Assembly (NCBI GenBank): GCA_029263175.1
Contig: JAJCXZ010000106.1
Coordinates: 5,214 to 69,213, forward strand
Direction of reading: 5' to 3'
DNA length: 64,000 nt
Source of the DNA: Acidimicrobiales bacterium
GTDB lineage: Bacteria; Actinomycetota; Acidimicrobiia; Acidimicrobiales; Aldehydirespiratoraceae
A program made the position numbers and the translations under genes. This document shows, one piece after another, positions 9,479 to 45,589 of this stretch. Position 1 is the first letter of the stretch, and each line of letters begins with the position of its first letter. The notes beneath the pieces were generated by a model that had not been told where the DNA came from, made no database searches, and saw nothing but the letters and a program-made list of their open reading frames with translations.

Positions 9479-10659
9479 ACATCGTCACTGTGCCACTACA
9501 ACGGGTGTTTCGGGTCGTCAACGGAGGCACACCGACAGCCGACGAGGCCAACTGGGCAGGCGATGTCCAATGGGCGACACCGGTCGACCTCGCGCGCAGT
9601 GACGGCGGGTTGATCGGGGCTACTGACAGGACCTTGACGCATGCCGGACTCGAGCAGGGCAGCCGTTCAGTGCCCTCGGGAAGTCTCGTCGTCTCGACGC
9701 GCGCTCCAATCGGCTACGTCGGTCAGACAACATGCGAAACTGCTTTCAACCAGGGTTGTCGGGGTTTGGTTCCGAGTTTCGAGTGCGATGTCCGCTTCTT
9801 TCGGTACCAGCTTTCGTCGATGACCGAACTCCTGAACTCGCTTGGGCAAGGTTCGACCTTCGTCGAGCTTTCATCGGGCGACCTTGAGTCTGCGCCGGTT
9901 GCAGTCCCTACAGTGGCGGAGCAGCGGGCGATTGCGGACTACCTAGACGCCGAGACCGCCCGCATCGACGCCCTCATCGCCAAGAAGCGACAACTCATCC
10001 ACCTCCTCGAAGAGCGCTGGCGGGCCCTTGTCGATCACGCAACGTCCACCGGTCACCGGGTCCGCGTTAGGCACTTAACGTCACTACGCACGAGCGGACC
10101 GAGGGGATGGGCAGAGCGGGTGGGTGACACCGGGCAGCCGTTCATAAGGTCAGGGAACCTGACCCGCGACTCGATCGAGATTGACCGCACAGAGTTGGCA
10201 AGAGTCGTACCCCCGAACGCCGCTGAGGCCAGACGCTCTGCGACCGCCTCGGGTGACTCTCTTATTGGGATTACTGGCGCCAACACCGGCTGGGTAGCAG
10301 CGGTCGACTCCGCGACGGACGCCGGGTTTGTCAGCCAGCACGTGGCGATTCTTCGCCCAGACCGAATCGAGCCTCGATGGCTTACCTACTCACTCTTTGC
10401 TCCGCGGTCTCAGGACCAGCTTCTCGGCGGTCAATACGGCGGCACGAAGACTCAGCTCGGGCTCCAAGACCTCGCGGAACTGGTCGTTCACGTGCCCACC
10501 AGCAGCGATCAACGGGTGATAGTCGAGCGCCTAGACGCGGAGCGGCTTCGACGCCGCCGGATGATCCAGGCACTCGAAATCCAGGTCGACCTACTGATTG
10601 AGCGTCGGCGCGCAGCTGTTACGGCAGCCGTGACCGGCACCCAAGAGGCCCCTAGATGA
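9475..10659 (+). CDS. hsdS: Type I R-M specificity subunit S (copy 1)
   Basis: 394 aa. The GTG start overlaps the hsdM stop (GTGA). Two variable halves are separated by the conserved central helix EQRAIADYLDAETARIDALIAKKRQLIHLLEE. The C-terminal conserved helix is LLIERRRAAVTAAVTG. Confidence 0.9.
   Translation: MNIVTVPLQRVFRVVNGGTPTADEANWAGDVQWATPVDLARSDGGLIGATDRTLTHAGLEQGSRSVPSGSLVVSTRAPIGYVGQTTCETAFNQGCRGLVPSFECDVRFFRYQLSSMTELLNSLGQGSTFVELSSGDLESAPVAVPTVAEQRAIADYLDAETARIDALIAKKRQLIHLLEERWRALVDHATSTGHRVRVRHLTSLRTSGPRGWAERVGDTGQPFIRSGNLTRDSIEIDRTELARVVPPNAAEARRSATASGDSLIGITGANTGWVAAVDSATDAGFVSQHVAILRPDRIEPRWLTYSLFAPRSQDQLLGGQYGGTKTQLGLQDLAELVVHVPTSSDQRVIVERLDAERLRRRRMIQALEIQVDLLIERRRAAVTAAVTGTQEAPR
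9925..10014 (+). repeat. 90-bp direct repeat, copy 1 (hsdS1 central conserved region)
   Basis: Hand alignment with 11106-11195 gives 88/90 identical (differences cctAgac/cctGgac and aagcGaca/aagcAaca). Confidence 0.85.
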
Positions 10660-21357: not shown

Positions 21358-21476
21358 CGGGCTCGACTCGCAGCCACGCTCCCCCAAGTATCGCGCCAGG
21401 TTCTGCGACGGTTGATCACGCCCGGTGAGCACCCAGGATGGTCTGTAAGGTCGGGCGCAGATCGAGAGGCGACCTC

Positions 21477-22346
21477 ATGAACGACCAACCCGAACTCGGT
21501 GCTCTCAGCCCCGTGAATCTGCGGACGATCTGGGCCAACGAGGCGACGGACTTCACACCCTGGTTGGCAGGGAACCTCGAACTCCTGGCGGAAGCTCTCG
21601 GGATCGGAGGTCTCACGCTTCTGGAACAGGAGCATCGCGTCGGATCATTCTGCCTCGATCTGCTCGCGCAACTCGACGACGGTCGGATCGTCGCGATCGA
21701 GAACCAACTCGAGCGCTCCGATCACACCCATCTTGGCCAGTGCTTGACGTACGCGGCCGGTGTCGGCGCCTATGCGATCGTGTGGGTTCTGCCGGCTCTG
21801 GCGAGCGAGCATCGCGCCGCGCTGGACTGGCTCAACGAACACACTGACGGCGAGGTTCACTTCTTCGGAGTCGAGATAGCCGTCGTGCAGATCGGCGCTT
21901 CGCTGCCTGCGCCGGTCTTCAACATCGTCTCGCGGCCAAACGACTGGCAGAAGTCCGTGCGCACGCGGAACTCCACGGCATTCCGAGACTGGTCACGTGG
22001 CTACAAGGCGCTCGGCTCACTCCGCGATGCCGAATGGACGAGCATTCACGCCCTCGCAGAGCTACTCGGTACCTCGCCCGGTTGGGTGGGCCGCCACTTC
22101 TACAACCGCCGCCACGACCCAGAGACCATCCGGATGTTCATGGATGACGGGTCGATCTGGAAATGGATGCGGCACGACGCGGACTCGCCACCGAGCGCGG
22201 GGCAACTTCGCGACGAACTCGCCAACCTTGGCATCGTGCTCGATGACAACGACCGCGCCGATCCTTCTGACTTCATGGACTCCAGCGCGCTGGCGGCCCG
22301 GCTCGCCTCCGAGGAGTTGCCTCCCGCCCAGACAGGGGTTGAGTAG
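21477..22346 (+). CDS. PD-(D/E)XK nuclease-fold protein (DUF4268-type)
   Basis: Starts MNDQPEL, preceded by GAGAGG. Core: HRVGSFCLDLLAQLDDGRIVAIENQLERSDHTHLGQCLTYAAG (D...E-x-Q). Confidence 0.6.
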   Translation: MNDQPELGALSPVNLRTIWANEATDFTPWLAGNLELLAEALGIGGLTLLEQEHRVGSFCLDLLAQLDDGRIVAIENQLERSDHTHLGQCLTYAAGVGAYAIVWVLPALASEHRAALDWLNEHTDGEVHFFGVEIAVVQIGASLPAPVFNIVSRPNDWQKSVRTRNSTAFRDWSRGYKALGSLRDAEWTSIHALAELLGTSPGWVGRHFYNRRHDPETIRMFMDDGSIWKWMRHDADSPPSAGQLRDELANLGIVLDDNDRADPSDFMDSSALAARLASEELPPAQTGVE

Positions 22347-25242: not shown

Positions 25243-25488
25243 TGTCACCTCCGGTTGGAACCTAGAGATCATTGCATGGCATGGCCGCGGTTCACCAGAT
25301 TGTCGCGAGGAGTGAGCTGCCATCCAACAAGGTGGGACTTCGGCCGAGTTGACAGCTGACGATTCAGCATCGATGGCATTCTTCCGCCACCCAATAGTCG
25401 CACTCTCGACCCGATCTGTCGGCAGCCGTGAGCTGAATATCCAGGGGATGTCCTGGCCCCGGAGCGGGTTCGCAGCCACTGCTCAACC

Positions 25489-25515
25489 GACTCGTTCTTC
25501 GTCGGAGAAGAAGTC
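25489..25515 (+). repeat. Intergenic core repeat, copy a
   Basis: gaCTCGTTCTTcgtcgGAGAAgaaGTCg, between the vapC 3' end and the 24994-25242 gene. Confidence 0.7.
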
Positions 25516-25593
25516 GCATCGCCCGAGGGGCTCGTGAGGTCGATCTATCTTCGGCGCCCCTTGGCGGCGTGTGCCGTGTGAGTACGTTCGCTG

Positions 25594-26019
25594 TCAGTAG
25601 ATGAGCAGCTCGGTGGGGCATACAACAGCTGAGCTGTTGGCCAGCCTTGCGTCGGCGGTCGCGAGGACGCACTGACCGCCGTATTCGGCTTGCAGGCGTT
25701 CTGTTAGGGCAACGTATGCCGCGTCGTAGGGCGTGAGGTTGTTGTGGAGCTCCCAGATCCTGACGAGCATCGGATGTGTGACGGACTCGCGAACGACCGG
25801 AAGAGCTGAAAGTGATCTGTGCATGTGTTCGGCCCAGTCAGCGGACGCCTCGTTCCTCAGAACCAGGCCGCGGATCGCTGAGCTCACCTCAAGCACAGTG
25901 AGCCCGTGGACAATGTGAGCGTCGTCGCCGTCAAGAAGATCCAGGAGCCATCGTCGTGCCGCTGTCCCTTCTGGCCTGACGCACTCCGCAAGGACTGAGG
26001 CGTCTAGAACGACCCGCAC
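25594..26019 (-). CDS. vapC: PIN-domain toxin (VapC family)
   Basis: GTG start. VVLDASVL.., LTVLEVSSAI, LTPYDAAYVALTERL and VLATADARL supply the conserved acidic PIN residues. Confidence 0.85.
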   Translation of the reverse strand: MRVVLDASVLAECVRPEGTAARRWLLDLLDGDDAHIVHGLTVLEVSSAIRGLVLRNEASADWAEHMHRSLSALPVVRESVTHPMLVRIWELHNNLTPYDAAYVALTERLQAEYGGQCVLATADARLANSSAVVCPTELLIY

Positions 26020-26022
26020 GAA

Positions 26023-26175
26023 CTAATGATTCGCTTCGCGGTCCGCGCGAATCAGCTCTACGATGCGCTCGAGCGTGACGTCCGCGTCCGAGACTTCATT
26101 CGCATCCTGATCCAACTTCGCGAAGGCAAGCTCAAGATCAGATGGCTCACGCTTCGCAGTTGACGCATCTGTCAT
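26023..26175 (-). CDS. Putative VapB-type antitoxin (50 aa, below the ORF-track cutoff)
   Basis: My translation: MTDASTAKREPSDLELAFAKLDQDANEVSDADVTLERIVELIRADREANH. The stop lies 3 nt before the vapC GTG. Confidence 0.6.
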   Translation of the reverse strand: MTDASTAKREPSDLELAFAKLDQDANEVSDADVTLERIVELIRADREANH

Positions 26176-26305
26176 CGAGAGGCTCCCAGACCTTCAGCCG
26201 CACCGTCGGAATTCCAACGATGTAATTCAACAGCACCTGACGGCCGAGCGCAACAGCTGCGTAAAGCGGGCGCAGGGTGATCGAGGTCGATCGCGACGGC
26301 CTATG

Positions 26306-26395
26306 GACTCGTTCTTAGGTCGAGAACCGGTCCCGGGCCGCGAGGCTAGATCGACTGGCACCCTGGGTGTCATAGGTGACTGTTACGGTGGCGCA
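26306..26395 (+). repeat. Intergenic core repeat, copy b (extends to the start codon of the 26396 gene)
   Basis: gaCTCGTTCTTaggtcGAGAAccgGTCc ... gtgtcataggtgactgttacggtggcgcaATG. Confidence 0.7.
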
Positions 26396-26584
26396 ATGGA
26401 GCAGTTGCCGAAGCTCAGCGCCGCCGAGTTGGAGCGGATGACCCCCGACGAACGCGCTCGAGCTATCCGTGAACGACAGCTCCAATCGCTGGATCAGCTC
26501 GCCCCGGAGTTTCGGGCTCGGGTTGAGAAGACCGCCCGCAAACTACTGGAGGAGCGGGGACTGCTCGATGTCGAGCAGACGTAG
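26396..26584 (+). CDS. Small helical protein, putative antitoxin-like partner
   Basis: MEQLPKLSAAELERMTPDERARAIRERQL.. The gene is followed 3 nt later by the next gene. Confidence 0.4.
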   Translation: MEQLPKLSAAELERMTPDERARAIRERQLQSLDQLAPEFRARVEKTARKLLEERGLLDVEQT

Positions 26585-26587
26585 CTG

Positions 26588-26896
26588 GTGAGCCCGGCGG
26601 GGCGACGCAGAGCGATCCGCGTGTCGCAGACGTTCTTCGAGATGCTCGATCTCCAGTTCGGGCCGGATCGGGGGCCCAACGGCGAACCCTCTGCGACGGA
26701 TTTCCTGGTCATCGACCTTCCCGAGATCGTCGACGCATTCGCGCTCGGGTTCGACGAGTTACCCGAAGTCATCGAAGGCCTCAGATCGGCGCGGGTCTAC
26801 ATCGGCGCAGGCGCCCTCGTCTCGGGCGTAGCCGTCTATGGCGTGGAAGTAGCCGACGGTGTGGTCGAACTGATCGGCGTCGAGATCGACCCGTAG
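26588..26896 (+). CDS. Hypothetical protein, possibly RelE/ParE-like
   Basis: GTG start 3 nt after the previous stop. IRVSQTFFEMLDLQF ... RVYIGAGALVSGVAVYGVEVADGVVELIGVEID loosely fits a ParE-type beta-sheet tail. Confidence 0.35.
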   Translation: MSPAGRRRAIRVSQTFFEMLDLQFGPDRGPNGEPSATDFLVIDLPEIVDAFALGFDELPEVIEGLRSARVYIGAGALVSGVAVYGVEVADGVVELIGVEIDP

Positions 26897-26902
26897 TCAC
26901 CT

Positions 26903-26976
26903 ACTCGGTCCTTCGCAGGGAAGCAGTCCGGCCTTGGTTGTGTCCCCATGTTCTGGTGGTGCAAGGATGACCAGCG
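26903..26976 (+). repeat. Intergenic core repeat, copy c (long form)
   Basis: taCTCGGTCCTtcgcaGGGAAgcaGTCCggccttggttgtgtccccatgttctggtggtgcaaggatgaccagcg. About 80 percent identical by eye to copy f over about 75 nt. Confidence 0.75.
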
Positions 26977-26999
26977 TTGTCGCTCAGTTGCGAGCGAGC

Positions 27000-27524
27000 T
27001 CAGGTGTCGTTCTTCCGTTCGAAGTAGAGGTCGAGGTGCGCGAGGTCCTTCGCTCGACCCGACGCCTGTTTGAGGGCCTCCCAGGTGGCCGTTGAGATAA
27101 CGAGCACCGGTTGTCCGTCAATCGAGAGTTCGACGGAGTTGTCGACGAGATCGTCGTAGCCGCCGCTAGCACCGTCGGGAGCGAAGACGAGGTCGAGTGG
27201 GCCGTGGATCGTCATGAGATGGAGCGTGTCGTACTGCGCCCAGTTCTCGATCGGGTGACGAGAGAAGAACGTGCCACCCTCGTCGGCGGTGTACAGGCCG
27301 GCCTCCAGTTCGTCGAACGCGGCGGCGAGTCGCTCAAGGTTCTCGTGATCTCGCGCCGGCGTCAGGTCGATGCCGACAGTTGCCGGGATCGGCAGGTCGT
27401 GGATCTGAGCGGCGATTCCACCGATGACGACATATCGAACGGCGTGTCGGTTGAGGACCGCGACGATCGCTCCCGGATCGAGTTCAGCCACGTTCGGAGT
27501 GGCCTGCCACTCGCCGTCGTTCAT
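27000..27524 (-). CDS. Nucleotidyltransferase-fold protein (TA-like partner of the XRE regulator)
   Basis: ATG 27524 with AAGGAAA RBS. Motif: RYVVIGGIAAQIHDLPIPATVGIDLTP. Confidence 0.55.
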   Translation of the reverse strand: MNDGEWQATPNVAELDPGAIVAVLNRHAVRYVVIGGIAAQIHDLPIPATVGIDLTPARDHENLERLAAAFDELEAGLYTADEGGTFFSRHPIENWAQYDTLHLMTIHGPLDLVFAPDGASGGYDDLVDNSVELSIDGQPVLVISTATWEALKQASGRAKDLAHLDLYFERKNDT

Positions 27525-27804
27525 TTTCCTTGTGGGCGTCGACCTGTTCGGACGGCAACAGAGATTCCGCGAGGACCCGGGAGGCTTCGTGTGTATCGGG
27601 TTCGGCAAGGCGCATACGCACCTCGAACCCGGCGGCGGAGAGGATCCGGCTGAGGGTGTCCACAGACGGGGAGCGCCGGCCGGACTCGTAGGCGGAGATG
27701 GCCGCCTGGCTGGTAGCGGCGCGTCTGGCGAGTTCCTGTTGGGTGAGCGAGGCGCGGCGACGTGCCATGCGAATCAGGTGACGAGAGTACGTTTCGGACG
27801 CCAT
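27484..27804 (-). CDS. XRE-family helix-turn-helix transcriptional regulator/antitoxin
   Basis: IRMARRRASLTQQELARRAATSQAAISAYESGRRSPSVDTLSRIL is a classic HTH_3 pattern. Its 3' end overlaps the NTase gene by about 40 nt. Confidence 0.8.
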   Translation of the reverse strand: MASETYSRHLIRMARRRASLTQQELARRAATSQAAISAYESGRRSPSVDTLSRILSAAGFEVRMRLAEPDTHEASRVLAESLLPSEQVDAHKENERRRVAGHSERG

Positions 27805-27813
27805 GGACTCAGT

Positions 27814-27829
27814 ATACCGGTACCGGTAT
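27814..27829. promoter_or_regulatory. Perfect 16-bp palindrome ATACCGGTACCGGTAT, candidate operator of the XRE regulator
   Basis: Read directly from the sequence. It lies 10 nt upstream of the XRE start codon (27804, minus strand), in the divergent intergenic region. Confidence 0.5.
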
Positions 27830-27858
27830 GCCTGGCGCGGCGGCTCGCTTAGAAGGCC

Positions 27859-27940
27859 GACTCGTTCTTACGCAGGGAATCAATCGCTCACCTCGTCCGG
27901 CACAGCACCGAGTGTCATAGCCGCCGTCTACAGTTGACCA
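27859..27940 (+). repeat. Intergenic core repeat, copy d (extends to the start codon of the 27941 gene)
   Basis: gaCTCGTTCTTacgcaGGGAAtcaatc ... gtgtcatagccgccgtctacagttgaccaATG. Confidence 0.7.
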
Positions 27941-28186
27941 ATGGCCGTCACCGACACCCCGCCTCATGTTCAGCGTCGGCTGGCGGCCGTCTTTGCGACC
28001 ATGACCGGGGCCGAACGAGTGACGCTCGCTGCGGAGATGGCCGAGGAAGCGAAACTCATCGCGATCGCTGGGATTCGAGCGCGCAAGCCTGAGCTGACCG
28101 ACTCACAGATCGCGGAAGAGTGGATCCGCCTACTTCATGGCGATCAGGTGGCAGATCGAGTGGCTCGGTGCAGCTCGAGTTCCTAG
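27941..28186 (+). CDS. Small helical protein, putative partner of the downstream nucleotidyltransferase
   Basis: 81-aa ORF whose 3' end overlaps the start of the NTase gene. Confidence 0.45.
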   Translation: MAVTDTPPHVQRRLAAVFATMTGAERVTLAAEMAEEAKLIAIAGIRARKPELTDSQIAEEWIRLLHGDQVADRVARCSSSS

Positions 28187-28719
28187 GCACGATCGTTGCC
28201 TGGCTGGACGAGGCCGAGATCCCTCACATGTTGGCTGGCTCGATGGCCAGCACATACCACGGCGAGCCCAGGATGACTCGCGACATCGACATGGTCATCG
28301 ACCCGACCCCAGAAGCGATGAACCGATTCATCGCCAGCCTTGTTCGCCCTCGGTTCTACGTCGACGACGCGGAGGGCGCCGTTCGCCGCCGCGGCATGTG
28401 CAATGTGATCGACACCGACACCGGCTGGAAGGTCGATCTCATTGTCCGCAAGGACCGTCCTTTCAGCCTGGAGGAGTTCCAACGCCGGGAGCGTGCGCTG
28501 ATCGGTGACATCCCGCTCTTTGTGGCAACCGCTGAGGACACTGTTCTTGCGAAACTCGAGTGGCGGTCACGGTCGGGCTCTGATCGTCAGTTTGATGATG
28601 TGGTTTCGGTGCTCGCCGCCCAAGACGTCGATCTCGACTACCTGCGGCACTGGTCACGTGAGCTCGATGTCGCCGAGTCGCTCGAGCGTGCACTCGAAGC
28701 TGCTGTCGAGCGGAGCTGA
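28168..28719 (+). CDS. Nucleotidyltransferase (pol-beta superfamily) protein
   Basis: HMLAGSMASTYHGEPRMTRDIDMVIDP (G-S...D-x-D motif). The GTG 28168 start is chosen by position and the true start is uncertain. Confidence 0.65.
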   Translation: MQLEFLGTIVAWLDEAEIPHMLAGSMASTYHGEPRMTRDIDMVIDPTPEAMNRFIASLVRPRFYVDDAEGAVRRRGMCNVIDTDTGWKVDLIVRKDRPFSLEEFQRRERALIGDIPLFVATAEDTVLAKLEWRSRSGSDRQFDDVVSVLAAQDVDLDYLRHWSRELDVAESLERALEAAVERS

Positions 28720-28750
28720 ACTGAGGATGGCCCTCAGCGGATAGGGCCGG

Positions 28751-28790
28751 CGCCTTCTCACGTTGAGAAGCCGTCCTCTTGTCATCCGCA
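28751..28790 (+). repeat. Intergenic core repeat, copy g (diverged)
   Basis: cgCCTTCTCacgttGAGAAgccGTCCtcttgtcatccg. Stem CTTCTC/GAGAAG. Confidence 0.55.
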
Positions 28791-28994
28791 CTCGTCGTAC
28801 TCGCGGGTCGCGACGCCCGGGCAGTCGGCCAGAACGTTGGCGGCGAACGCCACCATGCACACGTGCCGGAGTCGTGAACGTCTCGTGGGCCGAGAGTGGC
28901 TCGGCAGGCTTCGCCGCGTCGAGTGCCACGTTCGCCCACGGCACTTCGAGCGGCGCGTCTCATGGCTGGCTGGTAGCGTCATTTTGCTCTCAGT

Positions 28995-31778
28995 TTGGAT
29001 GTTATGAGACCACGCACCCAATTCGCAGCAGGCCGTGGACGCAAACGGTCGGCTCTCGCGGCCACGGTGCTGGTGCTCTCGATGGTGGGCGCGTCGTCAC
29101 CGGCGGCGGCTCAGGACGTCGAGGTCGATCTCGGCATCGTGTTCTCAGCGGACCAGAGCTGTGACACGGGTTCCGACCGGCTGGTCTCCTCCGCAACCCC
29201 ATTCGAGGTGGCTGCCTGCTTCACCGAAAGCGGTTCACCGGTATCGGGTCGGGAGGTCTATCTCGAAGTTACCCATGGTGATGGCGAACTTGAGGTGCTC
29301 GACGCAGTCACCGATGGGTCAGGCGAGGCCCGATTCACGGTTATCCCCACATCGGCCGGCGTCACCACTGCCACAATCTGCGACGCCAACGGTTGCTACC
29401 AGTCCGTAGAACAAGAGTCCGATAGCCCGCCCCCACCACCAGTCATCCCGTACACCGCGGGCGGCGGCGACATCGGGTCGAGCGATGAAATCACTGACAA
29501 CCCACTCGACCTGATCGACGCCTACACGGGCGGCGAGGCGGGATCGGCTGAATCATCCGCTCACGGCGGGGTCGACATCCATCGGTTCAGCTACGCCGGG
29601 GTCGGTGACGACGGCCGATCGACGTTCAAGATCGAGATGGTTGGCGACGGCCGAGATCTCTTCGATCGAGCGGTCTCCCGGTGGGACATCAGCATTCAGG
29701 TCGGCACACCGGACGACACGTCGTACTCGTTGCGGGTGGCCAAGAACGAGGACGGCGGGCTCAATACGGGCAGCTGGGACGGCACCGGCCAGATTGCCGA
29801 CGCCGACGTCCAGCTCGAGTGGTCCGAAGATGGCGGCACGGCGTGTATCTCCGCGGCGGGGATCGATGTCCCCGAGGGTTCCAGCGTCACGGTCTTCGCC
29901 GCCGCCGCGCTCGACGACGAGGGCTCGGGCCTTTACGACGAATTGAGCGGCGAACTCGTCCCGGGCGACGGCCCGCCCGACGACGGCGACGATGACAGCT
30001 CCGGTGGCCTCGGGACCTCCAACGACGATTCGAGCGACTCCGACGACACAGATGGTTCGTCGACCGGCGACGACGGCGAATCCGGCGGCTCAGGTGGTTC
30101 GTCGACCGGCGACGGCGGCGACTCCGGCGGTCTACCGATCCTGCCGATCGTGATCGGCACCGCCGCGGCCGGCGGGGCCGGGCTCTGGCTGCGCTCCAAG
30201 AACAAGGAGGAGGACGAGAAGCCAAAGCCGAAGGTCAGGATTATCTCCAACGGCGGCACCGACTCGGTGAACCAGTATCAGACGTTCCGCGTCGTGGTCG
30301 AGATCCCGCGCGATGGCGATGAGCGGCCCGACGACGAGATCGACATCGAACTCTCGGCGGAATCCTGGGACAACGAAACGCTGACCCTGGCCTGGGACGA
30401 TCGTCAGCACGCGAAAGCGCCCGATGGACCGGCCGTCTACGTGAGCCAACCAATCACGCTCGCCAAGGGCGCCGAGGGCGAGGGCACGGTCACCGTGTTC
30501 GGGCACGAGTGGTCAGTCGGCGGATTCGAAGGCTTGTGGTTTACGAACGGTGAGACCGTCACCATTTCGTTTGGCGGCAGCTCGACGGAATTCATCGCCT
30601 ACGACTCGTGGATCGAACAAGGCATCGGCCGCTGCATGCTGGTCATCGCCCATTGGAAGAACGTCTGGACCAAGGTCCTGGCCGACACCGAAGGCCAGGA
30701 AGGGCCGGAGGCGGAGCTTGCTCGCGCCAACGCCAAGCGAGGGCTCGAATGGGCGGCCAAAGCGGAGAAGTGGAACGAACGAGACGATGCCCTCCAGGGC
30801 ACGAAGCTGGCCTATATCGAGGGATACGCGTCCAACATCGGCGACTTCTACGTCGACCTTCGAGAGGCGTTTACGACCGAACAAGGCATTTCCCACCGAG
30901 GCCAGGAAAACGCCCACAACTACAAGGCCAAGGGCATCTCCGACAACGCCTACCAGGTCGGTTCGGCGCTGTACCAGACCGTGGTCGGCGCAACCATCGC
31001 TGGCTCTGCGTACACGCTTGGCTCGGGCGACACGATCATGGGCCAGGAAGCCACATGGGATCAGCAGGTGCTGGCTGGCGTGGAGTTCGCCGGCTGGCTC
31101 ACCGTGGCCTCGGGCTTCGATGCTCGCGGACTCGGCGACGTGGTCGGCGGATCGGGAGCCAAACGGGCCGCGACCGATTCCCTCGGGGATCTCGCCGACG
31201 AGGTACCCACCGGCCCATCCACGCGGCCGCCCGACACCTTCAGTTCGGGGTGGAACCAGCCCACGGGCAGCGGACCCGGTTACTTCAATCCCGCGGGCAC
31301 GCTCGACACCATCGGGAGTCCAGCGACGGGCCGCCAAGTCGATGCCACCAAGCTGGTGCCGAACACCAGCCGCAAGGACGTCTACATCCACGGCACCCGA
31401 CCCGGTGCCGACACGCCGTTTGTCTCCGACGCGGGCACGCCGATATCCGTCAATCGGGTCGCCACCATTGTTGAGGCCAGTGATTGGAAACCGGGGATCG
31501 CGGTTCGGCTGATCTCGTGCTTCTCCGCGTCATCGGGGGCCGCGGCCGACCTGGCTCGCCGACTCAAGACTCGCGTGCTGGCACCCACCCACGCGGTCTC
31601 CATCAATCCCGATGGCAGCTTCCGGTTCCACGGCAATCGCAAGCCGCCGGATCCAAACGCCCCCAACGCGCCGCGTGGCTATGCTCCGCCGCCACCGGAG
31701 GCGGGCTGGCTCGAATTCGATGAGACCGGCACGCTTGTCGGCAAGATCGATCAACAAGGCAACTGGTCCGCACCATGA
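28995..31778 (+). CDS. Large secreted/single-pass membrane protein with polymorphic-toxin-like layout
   Basis: 927 aa. Signal-like RKRSALAATVLVLSMVGASSPAAAQD. Ig-like N-region. D/G/S-rich low-complexity stretch. TM LPILPIVIGTAAAGGAGLWL followed by RSKNKEEDEKPKPK. C-terminal segment VYIHGTRPG-x37-RLISCFSASSG. Confidence 0.7.
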   Translation: MDVMRPRTQFAAGRGRKRSALAATVLVLSMVGASSPAAAQDVEVDLGIVFSADQSCDTGSDRLVSSATPFEVAACFTESGSPVSGREVYLEVTHGDGELEVLDAVTDGSGEARFTVIPTSAGVTTATICDANGCYQSVEQESDSPPPPPVIPYTAGGGDIGSSDEITDNPLDLIDAYTGGEAGSAESSAHGGVDIHRFSYAGVGDDGRSTFKIEMVGDGRDLFDRAVSRWDISIQVGTPDDTSYSLRVAKNEDGGLNTGSWDGTGQIADADVQLEWSEDGGTACISAAGIDVPEGSSVTVFAAAALDDEGSGLYDELSGELVPGDGPPDDGDDDSSGGLGTSNDDSSDSDDTDGSSTGDDGESGGSGGSSTGDGGDSGGLPILPIVIGTAAAGGAGLWLRSKNKEEDEKPKPKVRIISNGGTDSVNQYQTFRVVVEIPRDGDERPDDEIDIELSAESWDNETLTLAWDDRQHAKAPDGPAVYVSQPITLAKGAEGEGTVTVFGHEWSVGGFEGLWFTNGETVTISFGGSSTEFIAYDSWIEQGIGRCMLVIAHWKNVWTKVLADTEGQEGPEAELARANAKRGLEWAAKAEKWNERDDALQGTKLAYIEGYASNIGDFYVDLREAFTTEQGISHRGQENAHNYKAKGISDNAYQVGSALYQTVVGATIAGSAYTLGSGDTIMGQEATWDQQVLAGVEFAGWLTVASGFDARGLGDVVGGSGAKRAATDSLGDLADEVPTGPSTRPPDTFSSGWNQPTGSGPGYFNPAGTLDTIGSPATGRQVDATKLVPNTSRKDVYIHGTRPGADTPFVSDAGTPISVNRVATIVEASDWKPGIAVRLISCFSASSGAAADLARRLKTRVLAPTHAVSINPDGSFRFHGNRKPPDPNAPNAPRGYAPPPPEAGWLEFDETGTLVGKIDQQGNWSAP

Positions 31779-31785
31779 GGTCACG

Positions 31786-32142
31786 ATGAAGAAATTCGGT
31801 TTCTTCGAAGAGTTCCGCGGCGAGGGTCCTGAGTTGGCGCCGCTCATGAACCCGCCGTACCGCTGGCAATCTGAGGTCTCGGCGTACCTCGAGAGCGGGC
31901 GAGTCGTGTCATGGTCACCCCAGCTCATCGAGGACCCGTTCGCGCTGGGCGAGTCGGTCGGCACCGACGCCATCCAAACCGACGGCGAGTGGGTGTGGCC
32001 GGCCGAGCTCGCCCACATCGTGCGTCGCCACGGGATCATGGTGCCCGATGCGTTCTTGTCGCGAATGAAGAGCAGAAACTGGAAGGCTTCCGCAGTCTCC
32101 GACGCGGTTGCGATGGAAGCGGCCGACACCGCCCTGAGCTAG
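31786..32142 (+). CDS. Small cytoplasmic protein, candidate cognate/immunity partner
   Basis: ATG 31786 lies 8 nt after the upstream stop, with GAGG RBS. MKKFGFFEEF...TDGEWVWPAELAHIVRRHGIMVPDAFL. Confidence 0.55.
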   Translation: MKKFGFFEEFRGEGPELAPLMNPPYRWQSEVSAYLESGRVVSWSPQLIEDPFALGESVGTDAIQTDGEWVWPAELAHIVRRHGIMVPDAFLSRMKSRNWKASAVSDAVAMEAADTALS

Positions 32143-32267
32143 GCGCGTACCGTGCGGACAGCGACGACATTGTCGCCTACCGCACTCCGCCCCAAAGAAC
32201 CTGGCAACGGCGCGAGCCGGAGGGGCAGAGGTTCAGCATGAGCTGATGGCTCTGCTTTCCAGCTGCC

Positions 32268-32300
32268 GTCTCGTTCTTTCGCAGAGAACAGCTCATCCAG
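32268..32300 (+). repeat. Intergenic core repeat, copy e
   Basis: gtCTCGTTCTTtcgcaGAGAAcagctcatccagtc. Stem GTTCT/AGAAC. Confidence 0.65.
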
Positions 32301-32312
32301 TCTCGGGCGGGC

Positions 32313-32711
32313 TCAATCGAAGGCGACCCGCTGCCGTAGCCAGCCGGCGAGCGCAGTCTCGTCGATTTCGCCTGCAGCAACCGCGAGCATGGTCTGCTCG
32401 GCGTCGTCGACGTCTGGGGGATCGGGGTCCCAGTGGCCGTCGTTGAGGTCGATGAACATCACGAGCGCGGCCCAGGCAGCGCGCTTGTTGCCGTCGGGCA
32501 GCGGATGGTTGCGGGCCAGCCGCCAGCAGAGCACGGCAGCCTTGTCGGCGATGTCAGGATAGAAATCCTCGTCGCCGAAGCCGGCCATGGGCGCGTGCAG
32601 CGCGGAGTCAGCAAGGTCGATCCGGCCAGACTTCGCGAGCACCTCGGCGGATACACCGGTGACCTGTTCGGAGAGCCACAGATACTCCGCGAGGTCGATG
32701 TACCGGGTCAC
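32313..32711 (-). CDS. doc: Fic/Doc-family toxin
   Basis: Doc-type Fic motif HPLPDGNKRAAWAA. 132 aa. The 4-nt overlap with the upstream antitoxin is inferred from the ORF coordinates. Confidence 0.88.
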   Translation of the reverse strand: MTRYIDLAEYLWLSEQVTGVSAEVLAKSGRIDLADSALHAPMAGFGDEDFYPDIADKAAVLCWRLARNHPLPDGNKRAAWAALVMFIDLNDGHWDPDPPDVDDAEQTMLAVAAGEIDETALAGWLRQRVAFD

Positions 32712-32917
32712 TTGGCCAGGCGTTCGAGGAGCTCCTTGTCGCGTTCGATGAGTCGCTTGGCCCGCGACGTGAACTCGTCGTCGGCTCGAACTCGTTCGAT
32801 CTCCGCGCTCAGGGAATCGATGATGAGTTGGTTCACGCTCGTGCCCTTCACCCGGGCAACGGCTTCGGCTTCGTCGGCGAGTTCATCGGGGAGTCGGACG
32901 GTGGTCTGCTTGGGCAT
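32708..32917 (-). CDS. Ribbon-helix-helix (CopG/Phd-like) antitoxin
   Basis: MPKQTTVRLPDELADEAEAVARVKGTSVNQLIIDSL is an RHH N-terminal pattern. Confidence 0.8.
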   Translation of the reverse strand: MPKQTTVRLPDELADEAEAVARVKGTSVNQLIIDSLSAEIERVRADDEFTSRAKRLIERDKELLERLAK

Positions 32918-32988
32918 GACATCACGATATCACGACATCGTGAATATGGCGAGCGTGCACCTGCGGCGGCCGGACGCCCAGGGGACTC

Positions 32989-33068
32989 TGGCTCGTTCTT
33001 TGGTTGAGAAGAAGTCCGGTCTTGGTTGTGCCCCCATGTTCTGGCGGTGCGGGGAAGGTTGACCAGCG
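32989..33068 (+). repeat. Intergenic core repeat, copy f (long form)
   Basis: ggCTCGTTCTTtggttGAGAAgaaGTCCggtcttggttgtgcccccatgttctggcggtgcggggaaggttgaccagcg. Confidence 0.75.
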
Positions 33069-33187
33069 CATGCAGGAGGTTTGCGCGGCGCTCGCGGCTG
33101 ACTGTCTCACCCCTTCCGTAGGGTGAATTCACTTCCTCTCATCGCAGCTCGCGCTGCCTTTCGCAACGACGAACGAGAGGAAGTGCC

Positions 33188-33646
33188 ATGTGCATGGTGT
33201 GCGATGGCTTCAGTTTCGAAGAGATCGAGCGGCAGCTCGATCTCAGCATCCAGGTCAACGGATTCTTCATCCAGCAGGTGGGCGACAGCTTCGACGACCC
33301 GACCCTGTGGAGCTACACGATCGGTGTCAACGAGAGCTGGGGACACGCCGACTTCGTTGTCGTCGACATGCCTGCGGATCTCCAACGTCACGTGATCGCG
33401 GCGCTCATCGACGACGTTGTCGACTTCGGCGAGGTTCGGGCTGAGACTCGTCGGCTCCTCGACCTCGAGTTGGTTCCGGTACATCGCTCGCACCTCGCGG
33501 CGGGGATGGTCGGTATGTGGGAGGTTCGCAACGGGCGCGATGCCGAACCGGGCGACTTCTTTCAGATTGTTCCCGGTCTGAAGTGGTACTGCACCGGACA
33601 CGCATCGATCGGCCGGCGACTCGATCGCTCCAACGGTGAGGTTTGA
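33188..33646 (+). CDS. DUF4262 domain protein
   Basis: GFFIQQVGD..LWSYTIGVNESWGHADFVVVDMP fits the DUF4262 pattern. Confidence 0.65.
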   Translation: MCMVCDGFSFEEIERQLDLSIQVNGFFIQQVGDSFDDPTLWSYTIGVNESWGHADFVVVDMPADLQRHVIAALIDDVVDFGEVRAETRRLLDLELVPVHRSHLAAGMVGMWEVRNGRDAEPGDFFQIVPGLKWYCTGHASIGRRLDRSNGEV

Positions 33647-33651
33647 GAGTG

Positions 33652-33680
33652 ATCCGTGTTACACGGAATCCGTGTTACAC
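33652..33680 (+). promoter_or_regulatory. Two direct copies of ATCCGTGTTACAC (16-nt period), candidate VapB operator
   Basis: Read directly: gATCCGTGTTACACggaATCCGTGTTACACtgatcaaATG. Each copy contains GTGT-N-ACAC. The second copy ends 7 nt before the antitoxin start. Confidence 0.5.
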
Positions 33681-33687
33681 TGATCAA

Positions 33688-33918
33688 ATGGCCAATCTGA
33701 CGGTCACCATCGACGACGACCTGCTTCGTCGGGCCCGGAGCCGGGCGATCGGCAATGACACCTCGGTCAACGCCCTGATCCGCGAGTTCCTGGAGACCTA
33801 CGTGGGGTCCGAGCTCGACGACATCCGGTCCGACTTCCTGGATCACGCCGCCGAGCACGCCGGCACGAGTGGTGCGGGCGGGCGATCGTGGACTCGAGAC
33901 GAACTCCATGACCGATAG
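33688..33918 (+). CDS. vapB: RHH-type antitoxin (VapB-like)
   Basis: MANLTVTIDDDLLRRARSRAIGNDTSVNALIREFL. Overlaps the vapC start by 11 nt. Confidence 0.8.
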   Translation: MANLTVTIDDDLLRRARSRAIGNDTSVNALIREFLETYVGSELDDIRSDFLDHAAEHAGTSGAGGRSWTRDELHDR

Positions 33919-34321
33919 GGCCTTCATCGACACCAACATCGTCGTCTACGCCTACGACGGCCGCGATCCCGTCAAGCAGGAGCAGGCGCGAGCGGTGATC
34001 GCCGACACCAAGCGCCGGCCGGTGGTCAGTACCCAGGTGCTCGGCGAGTTCTACGTCACGATCACCCGCAAGCTCGAGACCCCCGTTGCGATGCCCGTCG
34101 CTCGCGAAGCGGTCGAGCGACTGTCGAGATTCCCGGTCATCCCCCTCGACCGCGACCTCGCGCTCGCCGCGATCGACACCACGCAATCCCACCAGCTCAG
34201 CTACTGGGACGCCCTCATCGTCGAAGCTGCGCGGGTGGGAGGGTGCCGCACCCTTCTCACCGAAGACTTCACTGCCGGTTCCGAGATCCGAGGCGTCGAC
34301 ATCGTGAACCCCTTCGTCTGA
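33908..34321 (+). CDS. vapC: PIN-domain toxin (VapC family)
   Basis: MTDRAFIDTNIVVYAYD.., VLGEFYV, LSYWDALIVEAA, LLTEDF. Confidence 0.88.
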   Translation: MTDRAFIDTNIVVYAYDGRDPVKQEQARAVIADTKRRPVVSTQVLGEFYVTITRKLETPVAMPVAREAVERLSRFPVIPLDRDLALAAIDTTQSHQLSYWDALIVEAARVGGCRTLLTEDFTAGSEIRGVDIVNPFV

Positions 34322-34451
34322 TCGAGGTCCCCTCGAATTGCTGCGCCACTGGATCGTTCACCAGTTGACCCGACGGCTGACCTCGGCGGTGGCTCTTCCG
34401 GCACCCGTGTAGCCGTTCTTCTACCATGGTGGCAGCGATCGGAGGATCGAC

Positions 34452-35725: not shown

Positions 35726-36043
35726 TTGGTAGAGCTCATGTGCCTACCGCATAAGATCCATGAGTTGATCGCAACGCTCGACGACAACTTGTTCCTTGTC
35801 AGGCTCGATCGCCTCACGCCAAAAGAGAAGGACTACCTCCGAGCGATGGCAGAGCTGGGCCCGGGACCGCACCGATCAGGTGACATTGCCACGGAGCTCG
35901 GCGTCAGAGTCGAGTCCGTCGCGCCCCGACGCTCGGGCCTGATCGCCAAGGGAGTGATCTACAGCCCTGCCCACGGGGACACCGCATTCACCGTGCCACT
36001 CTTCGACGAGTTCCTACGACGCACCCTGAGCTGGAAGGCTTGA
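35726..36043 (+). CDS. Small winged-helix protein resembling the C-terminal tail of Arch_ATPase-type ATP-binding proteins; possible gene remnant
   Basis: LTPKEKDYLRAMAELGPGPHRSGDIATELGVRVESVAPRRSGLIAKGVIY..FTVPLFDEFLRR. No ATPase part lies upstream. Confidence 0.35.
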   Translation: MVELMCLPHKIHELIATLDDNLFLVRLDRLTPKEKDYLRAMAELGPGPHRSGDIATELGVRVESVAPRRSGLIAKGVIYSPAHGDTAFTVPLFDEFLRRTLSWKA

Positions 36044-37384
36044 GCGTGCCGTCTTGTAGGCGGCCAACGTGTGCAGTCGAGCGGCGGCGTGGTCGACGAT
36101 CGGCGCTGGGTACTTCACCCCATGCGCTGGGCCGCCGCCTTTCCACGGGTCGTGGATGACAGGTGCCGCAAGACTGGCGAGTTCGGGCACCCAAAGACGG
36201 ATGTAGTCGCCGTGCGGGTCGAACTTCATGCTCTGCGTGGTTGGGTTGAAGATTCGAAAGTAGGGAGCCGCGTCGGGGCCCGTCCCTGCCACCCATTGCC
36301 AGTTTCCCGCGTTCTGGGCGAGATCAGCATCGATCAGGTGGTGACGAAAGAACTGTTCTCCCTTTCGCCAATCGATGAGCAAGTCCTTGACGAGGAAGCT
36401 GGCGCAGAGCATCCGCACCCGGCCATGGATCCAGCCTTCAGCCACGAGCTGACGCATGCCGGCATCCACGATCGGGTAGCCCGTCTGCCCGCGGCACCAC
36501 GCGTCGAAACCCTGGCGATCGTCGATCCACGTCATGGCCGAATACTCCGGGCGTACCGGAGAGGGGGCGAGATCCGGCCGTTCGGCGAGCATGTGGGCCC
36601 ACCAGTCGCGCCAGGCGACCTGACGGACGAACGCGGTGCGGCCCGTGGACGACTCGCCGACCACGTCGATGAGTGTCCGCGGCGAGATCGTGCCGAACTT
36701 GAGGTCCGCGGACAGGTGCGAAGTGCCGTGAAGGTCGGGACGGTCTCGGTCATCGGCGTAGCGATCGACGTCTTCGAGCCATCGCCGCGCCCGCTCCCAT
36801 GCCGCCTTCTCGCCGCCCGCCTGGCGCGGGGGTTCGCTGGGCTTTGGGATGTCGTCCGTCGAAAGCTCGACGGGCCGGCCGTTCCCGCCATCTGGCCATG
36901 GGGTTCGAGGGGTGGTTTGCCATCCCCGAAAGAACGGCGTGAAGACCTGTGACAACGTGCCCCGCTGGGTGAGTACCGCGCCGGGCTCGTGCGCCACGGT
37001 GCCCCAGAAGCGGTGCATGGGCACCTCAGTGGCCGCATGGACGGCGATGTCTCGCGCCCGGCTGAAGGGCGACGCATCGGTATTGAGGTAGACGGCGCTC
37101 GCACCACACGACTCGACGAGCGCCGGAATCGCCGCGGCCGCGGGCCCGTTGCGGACGACGAGCGCGCCACCCAACGAACGCAACGTCGAGTCGAGCGCCC
37201 GAAGGTGAGCGAAGAGTTGGTTGCGCCGGTGAGCAGAGGCGGCATCGAGCAGCGCCGGCTCCCACACGAAGCAGGCGACGACTGAGCGGTGCGCGGCTGT
37301 GGCTGCGTCCCACGCCGGGTTGTCGGCCAGGCGCAGATCTCGTCGAAACCACACGACGCCGGGGGCATCCTGCATTGTCGCCAT
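36014..37384 (-). CDS. phr: Deoxyribodipyrimidine photolyase / cryptochrome family
   Basis: VVWFRRDLRLADNPAW.., WREWWAH-like WRDWWAH, GWIHGRVRMLCASFLVKDLLIDWRKGEQFF..DADLAQNAGNWQWVAGTG.DAAPYFRIFNP. Confidence 0.93.
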   Translation of the reverse strand: MATMQDAPGVVWFRRDLRLADNPAWDAATAAHRSVVACFVWEPALLDAASAHRRNQLFAHLRALDSTLRSLGGALVVRNGPAAAAIPALVESCGASAVYLNTDASPFSRARDIAVHAATEVPMHRFWGTVAHEPGAVLTQRGTLSQVFTPFFRGWQTTPRTPWPDGGNGRPVELSTDDIPKPSEPPRQAGGEKAAWERARRWLEDVDRYADDRDRPDLHGTSHLSADLKFGTISPRTLIDVVGESSTGRTAFVRQVAWRDWWAHMLAERPDLAPSPVRPEYSAMTWIDDRQGFDAWCRGQTGYPIVDAGMRQLVAEGWIHGRVRMLCASFLVKDLLIDWRKGEQFFRHHLIDADLAQNAGNWQWVAGTGPDAAPYFRIFNPTTQSMKFDPHGDYIRLWVPELASLAAPVIHDPWKGGGPAHGVKYPAPIVDHAAARLHTLAAYKTARSSLPAQGAS

Positions 37385-39932: not shown

Positions 39933-40209
39933 TCCGGGCCCGCGCTTCGCTGCCGGTGATCCCGGCGGGGTACCAGCACATCTGCCTCAGGTATCTGCGT
40001 CCTGCTCGGCGCGGGCACGTTCCTCGGCGAGGTACCTCTGGTAGCGCGGACTGTCCGTTCCGTCGTCGCCGATGAAATAGGCAGCCTCCACTCGTTTCGC
40101 GGCACGCTCCTCAGGTGTGCTGTGCGGTTTGATTCCCATACGTCCAGGCTCTGGGCGTGTTCTCCCCGGCGGTAGGGACCTACGGCCCGGCACGCGCGCC
40201 GGCGTCAGG

Positions 40210-44976: not shown

Positions 44977-44994
44977 GTGTACGGAAGGTGTACG
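44977..44994 (+). promoter_or_regulatory. Direct repeat GTGTACG-N4-GTGTACG (plus upstream ACACC-ATATA-GGTGT inverted repeat at about 44957-44971), candidate VapB operator
   Basis: Read directly from the AT-richer stretch immediately upstream of vapB (45003). Confidence 0.35.
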
Positions 44995-45002
44995 ATCATG
45001 CT

Positions 45003-45197
45003 ATGGCCCGGACGAACATCGACATTGACGATCAGGTGCTCGACATCGTGATGCGGCGATACGGCGTGCGTACGAAGACCGAAGCGGTCGCTCTCGCTCT
45101 TCGGCACTTGGCCGGCCGCCCATTGACGATCGAGGAGGCACTCTCGCTCCAAGGGGCCCGTCTGGTCGATGAGATCCCGGCCGACCCATCGCCGTGA
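45003..45197 (+). CDS. vapB: VapB-family antitoxin
   Basis: MARTNIDIDDQVLDIVMRRYGVRTKTEAVALALRHL is the typical VapB (Rv0623-like) N-terminus. Confidence 0.82.
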   Translation: MARTNIDIDDQVLDIVMRRYGVRTKTEAVALALRHLAGRPLTIEEALSLQGARLVDEIPADPSP

Positions 45198-45589
45198 TCC
45201 TCGTCGACACCTCAGCGTGGGTCGAGTTCGACCGCGGCACCGGGTCGAGTGCGGACCGGCGCATCGCCGACCTGATCAGCGAGGGTGGCGGCGAGCTCGC
45301 GACAACCGAACCGGTGCTGATGGAAGTGCTTGCGGGCGCGCGCCGCGAGTCAGATGCGGCGCAGCTCCGGCAACTGCTCACCTCATACGCATGGGTGTCG
45401 GCCGATCCGGTGGCCGACTTTGAGGGCGCGGCGCGGATCTACCGGGCATGCCGTTCCAAGGGCATCACACCGAGGGGGCTGCTCGACTGCATGATCACGG
45501 CGATCGCCATTCGATCCGGATGTCAGCTGCTCGCCCACGACCGCGACTTCGCAGCAATGGCCACCGTCGTCCCGCTCACTCTGGCCTGA
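45194..45589 (+). CDS. vapC: PIN-domain toxin (VapC family)
   Basis: GTGA overlap with vapB. ILVDTSAWVEF, VLMEVLAG, DCMITAIAIRSG, LLAHDRDF. Confidence 0.88.
   Translation: MILVDTSAWVEFDRGTGSSADRRIADLISEGGGELATTEPVLMEVLAGARRESDAAQLRQLLTSYAWVSADPVADFEGAARIYRACRSKGITPRGLLDCMITAIAIRSGCQLLAHDRDFAAMATVVPLTLA

Follow-up and report, generated by a model that had tools for sequence, protein, structure and literature searches.

Why does one short repeat recur, always on the same strand, in seven successive gaps between small gene modules, irrespective of the direction in which the neighbouring genes are read? The question is raised by contig JAJCXZ010000106.1 of an Acidimicrobiales bacterium (GenBank assembly GCA_029263175.1), of which the 64,000 nt from position 5,214 to 69,213 were analysed (the window; positions below are those of the window unless a related locus is named). 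In this study, we observed that the array of repeats, which occupies 25489-33016, is real and non-random. Its units are 27-bp inverted repeats, and we propose that they serve as core-type sites for a site-specific recombinase whose gene lies elsewhere in the genome, and that they mark the borders of exchangeable gene modules, a reading to which we assign a probability of about 0.55. Mobility of the modules is supported by sequence comparison, namely by modules shared with other arrays, by homology that ends at the sites and by the absence of the array from a relative.

The array and its 27-bp site

The site unit reads GACTCGTTCTT-N5-GRGAACnnGTC. As the original prediction for this locus had stated, seven copies in the same orientation lie between modules, one per gap. 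The spacing between them is 0.6-3.5 kb; the eighth gap, at the right end of the array, is without a site. A site alignment and profile were built from 23 sites, comprising the seven window copies and 16 from six other assemblies (seven assemblies in all). In the following list of sites and modules, bit scores refer to this profile and spacers are in lower case.

25489-25515, plus strand: site a, GACTCGTTCTT cgtcg GAGAAGAAGTC; leftmost array site in the window, located 3' of vapC; 26.9 bits
25594-26175, minus strand: module 1, PIN-domain toxin (25594-26019; Pfam PIN, E 2e-7) and a 50-aa upstream partner (26023-26175)
26306-26332, plus strand: site b, GACTCGTTCTT aggtc GAGAACCGGTC; between the divergent modules 1 and 2; 27.9 bits
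26396-26896, plus strand: module 2, proteins of 62 and 102 aa without a family match
26902-26928, plus strand: site c, TACTCGGTCCT tcgca GGGAAGCAGTC; 6 nt past the module 2 stop, between the convergent modules 2 and 3; 19.3 bits
27000-27804, minus strand: module 3, 175-aa unknown protein and an XRE-type HTH protein (Pfam HTH_3, E 2e-12; HTH matches only in PADLOC)
27859-27885, plus strand: site d, GACTCGTTCTT acgca GGGAATCAATC; between the divergent modules 3 and 4; 25.7 bits
27941-28719, plus strand: module 4, 81-aa protein (weak Rv0078B-antitoxin-like match) and 183-aa protein (weak AbiEii/DUF6036 nucleotidyltransferase-like matches)
28749-28775, plus strand: site e, GGCGCCTTCTC acgtt GAGAAGCCGTC; left arm more degenerate than in any other copy; 18.0 bits
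28995-32142, plus strand: module 5, 927-aa secreted or membrane protein (weak Big_1 match) and 118-aa protein (31786-32142)
32268-32294, plus strand: site f, GTCTCGTTCTT tcgca GAGAACAGCTC; flanked by the convergent modules 5 and 6, with 18 nt to the stop codon of doc; 24.3 bits
32313-32917, minus strand: module 6, Fic/Doc toxin (32313-32711) and 69-aa RHH antitoxin (32708-32917)
32990-33016, plus strand: site g, GGCTCGTTCTT tggtt GAGAAGAAGTC; between the divergent modules 6 and 7, orthologous to 9698-9724 of the related locus L134; 24.4 bits
33188-34321, plus strand: module 7, DUF4262 protein, RHH antitoxin and PIN toxin
34411-34421, plus strand: possible right boundary, TAGCCGTTCTT, a left-arm-like half-site (8/11)

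By Pfam, the module contents are largely as predicted. Four cargo proteins have no family match in Pfam, NCBIfam or PADLOC. The degenerate copy that had been suspected at 34395-34440 was not found by the profile at E <= 5, and the half-site at the possible right boundary is all that could be recognized there.

Searched with at most two mismatches, the pattern CTCGTTCTT-N5-GRGAA matches the window seven times, compared with 0.76 +/- 0.85 times in shuffled sequences, and none of 100 shuffles reached seven. The seventh match (56086) lies outside the array, copy c (26902) is matched with two mismatches and copy e (28749) is missed; these two degenerate copies were recovered by a repeat search, a position weight matrix and the 23-site profile. 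The exact 9-mer that had been read in five copies indeed occurs in five, all on the plus strand, among seven occurrences in the window (0.38 expected). With the profile, the seven array copies reach 18-28 bits (E 1e-7 to 1.5e-4) and the next best hit in the 64 kb reaches 10.7 bits; seven copies thus lie within 7.6 kb and none in the remaining 56 kb. Inter-module gaps make up about 18% of 25243-34451, and the probability that seven random positions would all be intergenic is about 6e-6. No match was obtained for the window in Rfam (gathering thresholds for the whole window, E-value mode for the array), in a tRNA scan, or in a search of the PLSDB plasmids with the array.

The site is a near-palindromic inverted repeat of 11+5+11 bp; its 27 bp can alternatively be read as 10+7+10, or as 11+6+11 when the next base is counted. 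In the 23-site alignment, the left arm GACTCGTTCTT is conserved in 17-22 sites per position and the spacer is constantly 5 nt, while the right arm GRGAACnnGTC is looser and degenerate, with only GAAC and GTC kept. In both arms, conservation is highest at the inner positions. Near-perfect palindromes occur in relatives, at 9698-9724 of L134 (GACTCGTTCTC acgca AAGAACGAGTC), at 7732 of L138 and at 1598 of L148. For most copies, similarity is limited to the 27 bp.

The original prediction had described a short hairpin whose stem changes were compensated. These changes proved to be different pairing registers of the same conserved letters: over the 23 sites 78.3% of cells are paired, against 76.7 +/- 1.0% with shuffled partners, and 50 of 500 shuffles reach the observed value, so that covariation is not significant. 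Nor did the hairpin hold, as folding of the seven copies as single-stranded DNA gave -2.1 to -7.7 kcal/mol with z-scores of -2.2 to +0.5, no better than shuffles in six of the seven. Because the sequence is conserved and neither covariation nor hairpin stability is seen, the site is best described as a conserved inverted repeat that fits dimer recognition of duplex DNA, and not as a hairpin defined by its structure.

Two further similarities were observed next to individual copies. The right extensions of sites c (26929-26967) and g (33017-33055) are homologous over about 38-45 nt (92% over 38 nt, GTCCGGyCTTGGTTGTGyCCCCATGTTCTGGyGGTGC); the modules that follow them are unrelated, and the extension occurs in none of the other loci examined and has no Rfam match. 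A shared stretch of about 75 nt had been attributed to copies c and f, in a lettering that evidently placed the copy at 28751 last; it exists, but measures 64 nt at 81% identity, between the copies at 26904 and 32992 (c and g in the present lettering). The box GCACC-N2-3-GTGTCATAG, predicted to be common to b and d, was confirmed at 26367-26375 and 27912-27920, where 20-25 nt separate it from the start codon of the module that follows (2 and 4, respectively), and similar GTGTCA boxes precede the first module genes in L128 and L138. The GTGTCATAG box may be a promoter or operator element.

Modules and sites in related loci

The source organism is scarcely represented in the sequence collections, and only one identical Logan contig (26 kb) was found for the window. 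The Doc protein, whose close relatives number in the thousands, is 95% identical to a protein of a metagenome-assembled genome (MAG) annotated as 'Acidimicrobiales bacterium'. A contig scan with a 17-base pattern gave mostly chance matches in coding regions, and L052 was the sole true relative among the matches listed. Scans of viral contigs with the asymmetric pattern and with a perfect palindrome gave single chance-level matches only, those of the palindrome all in low-GC contigs. The site-bearing loci are the following; in them, sites again lie at the borders of small accessory modules.

L052: CAXMSE010000030
L128: Ga0316204_10059623, with a module of two genes for unannotated proteins of 196 aa and about 105 aa
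L129/L134: Ga0315336_1002036, with TIR-WD40 and NB-ARC/TPR proteins between sites in L134
L131: GCA_033344915.1
L135/L136: Ga0675949_002227, with many toxin-antitoxin pairs
L137: SRR10853130
L138-L147: CAOS20 time series

Modules recur in these loci in other surroundings. Module 2 (26366-26894) is found at 79% nucleotide identity in L135 (7797-7270) between different neighbours, and in both arrays a site lies within a few bases of its stop codon. The phd-doc module (module 6; 32272-32939) matches L135 10441-9773 at 91% and also L134, L131, L137, L138 and L052, and is present at 82-91% nucleotide identity in at least eight other contexts. The relative order of modules 2 and 6 differs between the window and Ga0675949_002227. 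Homology of module 6 ends within about 10-50 nt of sites or inside them; in a five-way alignment, a core is conserved from the doc stop to about 50 nt upstream of phd, with unrelated DNA beyond, and of about ten distinct contexts, seven have a site or half-site at most 120 nt away from the stop codon of doc. The larger protein of module 4 has a 66%-identical homologue in L131, where a weak site again comes next after its gene.

At two sites the similarity to relatives involves one arm. The left arm of site g and the DNA preceding it are common to L134 (16/17 nt), and the sequences diverge past the spacer, in the right arm and beyond; at site f, it is the right arm that is common to L135 (12/14 nt). 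Such arm sharing would be predicted by a crossover in the spacer, although the numbers are small. Within one population, L144 carries additional DNA that L138 and L141 lack; it starts directly after the right arm of the doc-proximal site and contains a second site.

An orthologous locus without the array was found in L119. Here the M55 peptidase is 89% identical at the amino acid and 84% at the nucleotide level, the globin-M55 gene pair is kept, and upstream of it there are unrelated genes and no sites; homology to the window begins at 34412. The same locus differs from the window by a second indel, which does not involve sites: the photolyase gene and a 105-aa gene (35726-37384) are absent at L119 6597-6814, where about 110 nt are instead similar to window 40097-40203.

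No sites were found in L119, L120, 143 kb of a sponge-type Acidimicrobiaceae locus or L168. The sponge-type lineage and L168 carry the same phd-doc operon without the site, and a second vapBC pair in the window (44988-45589) also has none; therefore, the site is not intrinsic to these operons. Sponge-type Acidimicrobiaceae strains (L158-L167, about 18.7-19.8 kb) differ from each other by the presence of vapBC at a fixed place (about 1 kb versus about 150 nt), again without the 27-bp site, and toxin-antitoxin turnover in these strains uses another route.

Site orientation is uniform in L135 (3/3), L137 (3/3) and L052 (4/4) and mixed in L128 and L134. An inversion of the L129 phd-doc module relative to the sites was considered and withdrawn, since the near-palindromic sites of L129 can be read in either orientation. 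Related arrays often contain tandem double or triple sites, spaced 31-36 nt apart (L052 920-985 and 4510-4580; L128 1609-1669; L134 3090-3150; L137 10412-10503; L144 1350-1420); the window has none. The L052 contig (CAXMSE010000030.1) is filed under a gammaproteobacterial MAG; in view of its 64% GC and its Acidimicrobiales-type phd-doc genes and sites, it is probably mis-binned.

Recombination sites and the alternatives

How could such an array arise? A module would be excised through recombination between two directly oriented flanking sites, the excised circle would bear one hybrid site, and it could re-enter at any resident site. Repeated rounds would leave one site per boundary, genes in either orientation, a shuffled order and a content that varies between relatives; the cargo moved in this way would be toxin-antitoxin pairs in the window and, in relatives, defence genes as well. 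The layout is that of a duplex site to which two recombinase subunits bind, most likely from the tyrosine family (Xer/dif-like), a likeness suggested by the 11-5-11 arrangement, the asymmetric conservation of the arms and the conserved inner arm positions. The dif sites have likewise been described as having arms of unequal conservation, with the highest conservation in their inner parts (PMC2731167). We infer recombination at these sites, the position of the crossover, and the kind and location of the recombinase from this layout and the comparisons above. It is tempting to speculate further that chromosomal toxin-antitoxin and defence arrays in Acidimicrobiales form a distinct, active cassette-exchange system that works through a 27-bp duplex site and a dedicated or co-opted recombinase encoded elsewhere; this wider proposal is possible, at somewhat less than even odds.

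Several observations weigh against recombination at the sites. No recombinase gene of a known family was found in the window and its upstream extension L148 (about 68 kb together), nor in the related loci with sites, which amount to about 100 kb. Most array copies differ in their spacers, which are CGTCG (a), AGGTC (b), TCGCA (c and f), ACGCA (d), ACGTT (e) and TGGTT (g), and the overlap regions must match for a classical tyrosine recombinase to act. The site is also unlike canonical dif, whose inner core is ...ATAA-N6-TTAT..., and an actinobacterial dif-like pattern finds no match in the window. Simple excision and integration do not predict the tandem double sites of L052, L128, L134, L137 and L144, and doc modules have half-sites or none in L131, in the second copy of L136, in L158-L167 and in L168. 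Among the related loci, no pair of empty and occupied sites has both junctions resolved, and the L144 variant has a scaffold gap that hides its far junction. Moreover, the related loci were reached only via the site pattern or the doc gene, and sampling is therefore biased.

A different role for a conserved inverted repeat would be that of an operator or insulator, bound by a regulator that controls or silences the modules without any recombination. Inverted repeats of conserved sequence are typical of dimeric DNA-binding proteins, and sites b, d and g do fall within divergent promoter regions, at distances of 53-170 nt to the start codons. However, sites c and f are enclosed by convergent stop codons, and sites a and e are found 3' of genes, after their stop codons, which also disfavours the promoter/operator alternative of the original prediction. 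The gene families flanked by sites are unrelated, module homology between arrays breaks at the sites, and, as described above, vapBC and phd-doc operons exist without them. A promoter and terminator scan returned nothing informative and no promoter-like hexamers. Taken together, these positions make a purely regulatory function unlikely.

We consider it just as unlikely that the repeats are a selfish palindromic element, resembling repetitive extragenic palindromes (REP), bacterial interspersed mosaic elements (BIME), palindrome-associated transposable elements (PATE) or miniature inverted-repeat transposable elements (MITE), which was spread by an HUH or other transposase elsewhere while the modules themselves did not move. 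An imperfect, strictly intergenic palindrome of REP-like size would fit, as would the tandem doublets in relatives, which are known from BIMEs, and the uniform strand in the window suits recognition of a single strand. Selfish spread would hardly account for the restriction of the copies to 7.6 kb of the window and their absence from the housekeeping flanks of L131, L137 and L119, observations that also speak against the MITE-like element once suggested for this locus, or for exactly one copy per module boundary with shared modules ending at the sites. The hairpins are weak, and no RAYT or IS200-type (Y1_Tnp) gene was seen among the proteins scanned.

Local duplication could have copied an intergenic core together with neighbouring DNA and left relics without present function. 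The 64 nt shared by c and g would agree with this, as would the spacer CGTCG common to site a, L052-956 and L128-1640; the confinement of similarity to 27 bp in most copies does not, and neither does the retention of the consensus and the constant 5-nt spacer beside unrelated genes in at least seven independent assemblies, which makes such an origin very improbable. Least probable of all is an integron cassette array without integrase (CALIN), with the repeats as attC sites that are recombined as folded single strands by an IntI elsewhere, for although same-orientation sites 0.6-3.5 kb apart at each cassette boundary and a toxin-antitoxin-rich cargo in both gene orientations are reminiscent of sedentary chromosomal integrons (PMC13108822), the site has 27 bp and not the 57-141 bp of attC, reads GTT...AAC on either strand and not RYYYAAC (R'')...GTTRRRY (R'), and is strongly conserved in sequence and not in structure alone (folding at -2 to -8 kcal/mol is no better than in shuffles, without covariation). 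No IntI gene, which a CALIN lacks by definition, was found in the window, L148 or related loci, and IntegronFinder 2.0 found no complete integrons in Actinobacteria (PMC9024848). Of the integron-style cassette array first proposed, the cassette array is supported, with one site per boundary, modules reshuffled in relatives and an array-less ortholog, whereas the integron in the strict sense is not; the lack of a recognisable integrase and of the R''/R' consensus had been noted correctly for the window and also applies to L148.

Known systems and the surroundings of the array

In the proposed reading, the array is functionally like the dif modules of Acinetobacter or integron cassettes, and is a member of neither, nor of the arrays of integrative mobile elements exploiting Xer (IMEX). 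It is set apart by a site that is unrelated to attC and canonical dif, by the direct orientation of the sites, by its chromosomal location and by its actinobacterial host. No earlier description of such arrays was found in the literature searched.

Acinetobacter dif modules are bounded by pdif sites, which measure about 28 bp and consist of two inverted 11-bp arms, one of them better conserved, around a short spacer; as here, no recombinase gene lies in or beside the modules, and a host enzyme is presumed to act. The modules measure 0.5-4 kb, are often toxin-antitoxin pairs and occur in varied orders and contexts (for example PMC6449649 and PMC13141974). The same module recurs site-bounded in different arrays, as do modules 2 and 6 here. 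In contrast, pdif sites are found on Rep_3 plasmids of a gammaproteobacterium and alternate between C/D and D/C, whereas the arrays in Acidimicrobiales (Actinomycetota) are chromosomal and the window sites are all direct; the pdif spacer has 6 nt (central region up to 8 bp) against 5 nt here, and the arms of our site are unrelated to canonical dif. Outside Acinetobacter plasmids, dif modules bounded by Xer sites are, to our knowledge, hardly known, and the mechanism of their movement is unsettled.

With integrons and CALIN, the array has in common one site per boundary, uniform orientation, cassette-sized spacing, a cargo rich in toxin-antitoxin genes and a content that varies between relatives. 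An attC is a 57-141-nt fold with R''/L''/L'/R' boxes, unlike the duplex-type repeat of 27 bp and conserved sequence described here; besides IntI, the attI/Pc platform is missing, and each module has regulatory regions of its own. IMEX at dif (CTX/TLC/RS1 in Vibrio, the gonococcal genetic island) likewise form successive elements, each bordered by a directly repeated, partly degenerate site, adjoin conserved chromosomal genes, as does the array, and are integrated by a host recombinase. They are phages or islands, however, and not gene pairs of 0.6-3.5 kb, the site here is not dif-like, and our sites and modules occur in several different genomic contexts. REP and BIME with RAYT resemble the repeats as imperfect, intergenic palindromes of 20-40 nt that sometimes form tandem pairs; they differ from them in that the copies here are clustered at the borders of accessory modules, are uniformly oriented in the window, form weak hairpins and are without a visible RAYT.

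Integrons are essentially absent from Actinobacteria (PMC9024848). If the proposed recombination is true, the array would be a functional analogue of integrons and dif modules, with an unrelated site, in a phylum essentially without integrons, and modular cassette exchange would have evolved or been co-opted more than once. It would also provide a concrete mechanism for the turnover of toxin-antitoxin and defence genes in abundant marine and soil actinobacteria. The short defined site GACTCGTTCTT-N5-GRGAACnnGTC would offer a handle for finding accessory-gene arrays in metagenomes, and would allow the recombinase to be sought by phylogenetic co-occurrence. Potentially, the pair of site and recombinase could become a genetic tool for high-GC Gram-positive bacteria.

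Immediately upstream of the array is a large defence island (279-22346) with two UvrD-like helicases, a type I restriction-modification system, T5orf172, GmrSD and a PDC-S11 candidate (21438-22346). It includes a helicase of 1630 aa, with AAA_11/AAA_12 and an MTES_1575 nuclease domain, and its restriction-modification genes are hsdM, two hsdS and an hsdR fused to a Schlafen/AlbA_2 domain. L148, which extends the window upstream by 4.1 kb, carries a further near-palindromic site at 1598-1624 (GAGCCGTTCTT ctcct CAGAACGAGTC). This site lies 2.55 kb left of the window start, at the island edge, between a Fic/HTH_3 pair and a 769-aa unknown gene, and a site thus lies on either side of the 28-kb defence island. 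Downstream of 34.45 kb, housekeeping-type genes follow (globin, M55 peptidase, photolyase and others).

No integrase, Phage_integrase or HUH domains were detected in the sizeable open reading frames of the window and the 4.1 kb upstream of it, and IS3-type rve transposases were the only ones seen in related site-bearing loci (L131, L138). Unannotated proteins of about 290 aa that adjoin sites in L134, L137 and L052 were considered as a new recombinase and rejected, since they have neither mutual similarity nor a recombinase domain.

Two minor observations concern single genes. In the 927-aa protein of module 5, a 42-nt tandem repeat (86% identity) at 30034-30117 encodes an Asp/Ser/Gly-rich linker before a predicted membrane segment. 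Outside the array, the VapB/PIN pair at 44988-45589 is not flanked by sites; over 94 nt, its vapC shows 71% similarity to a remnant of vapC that two sites enclose in L134.

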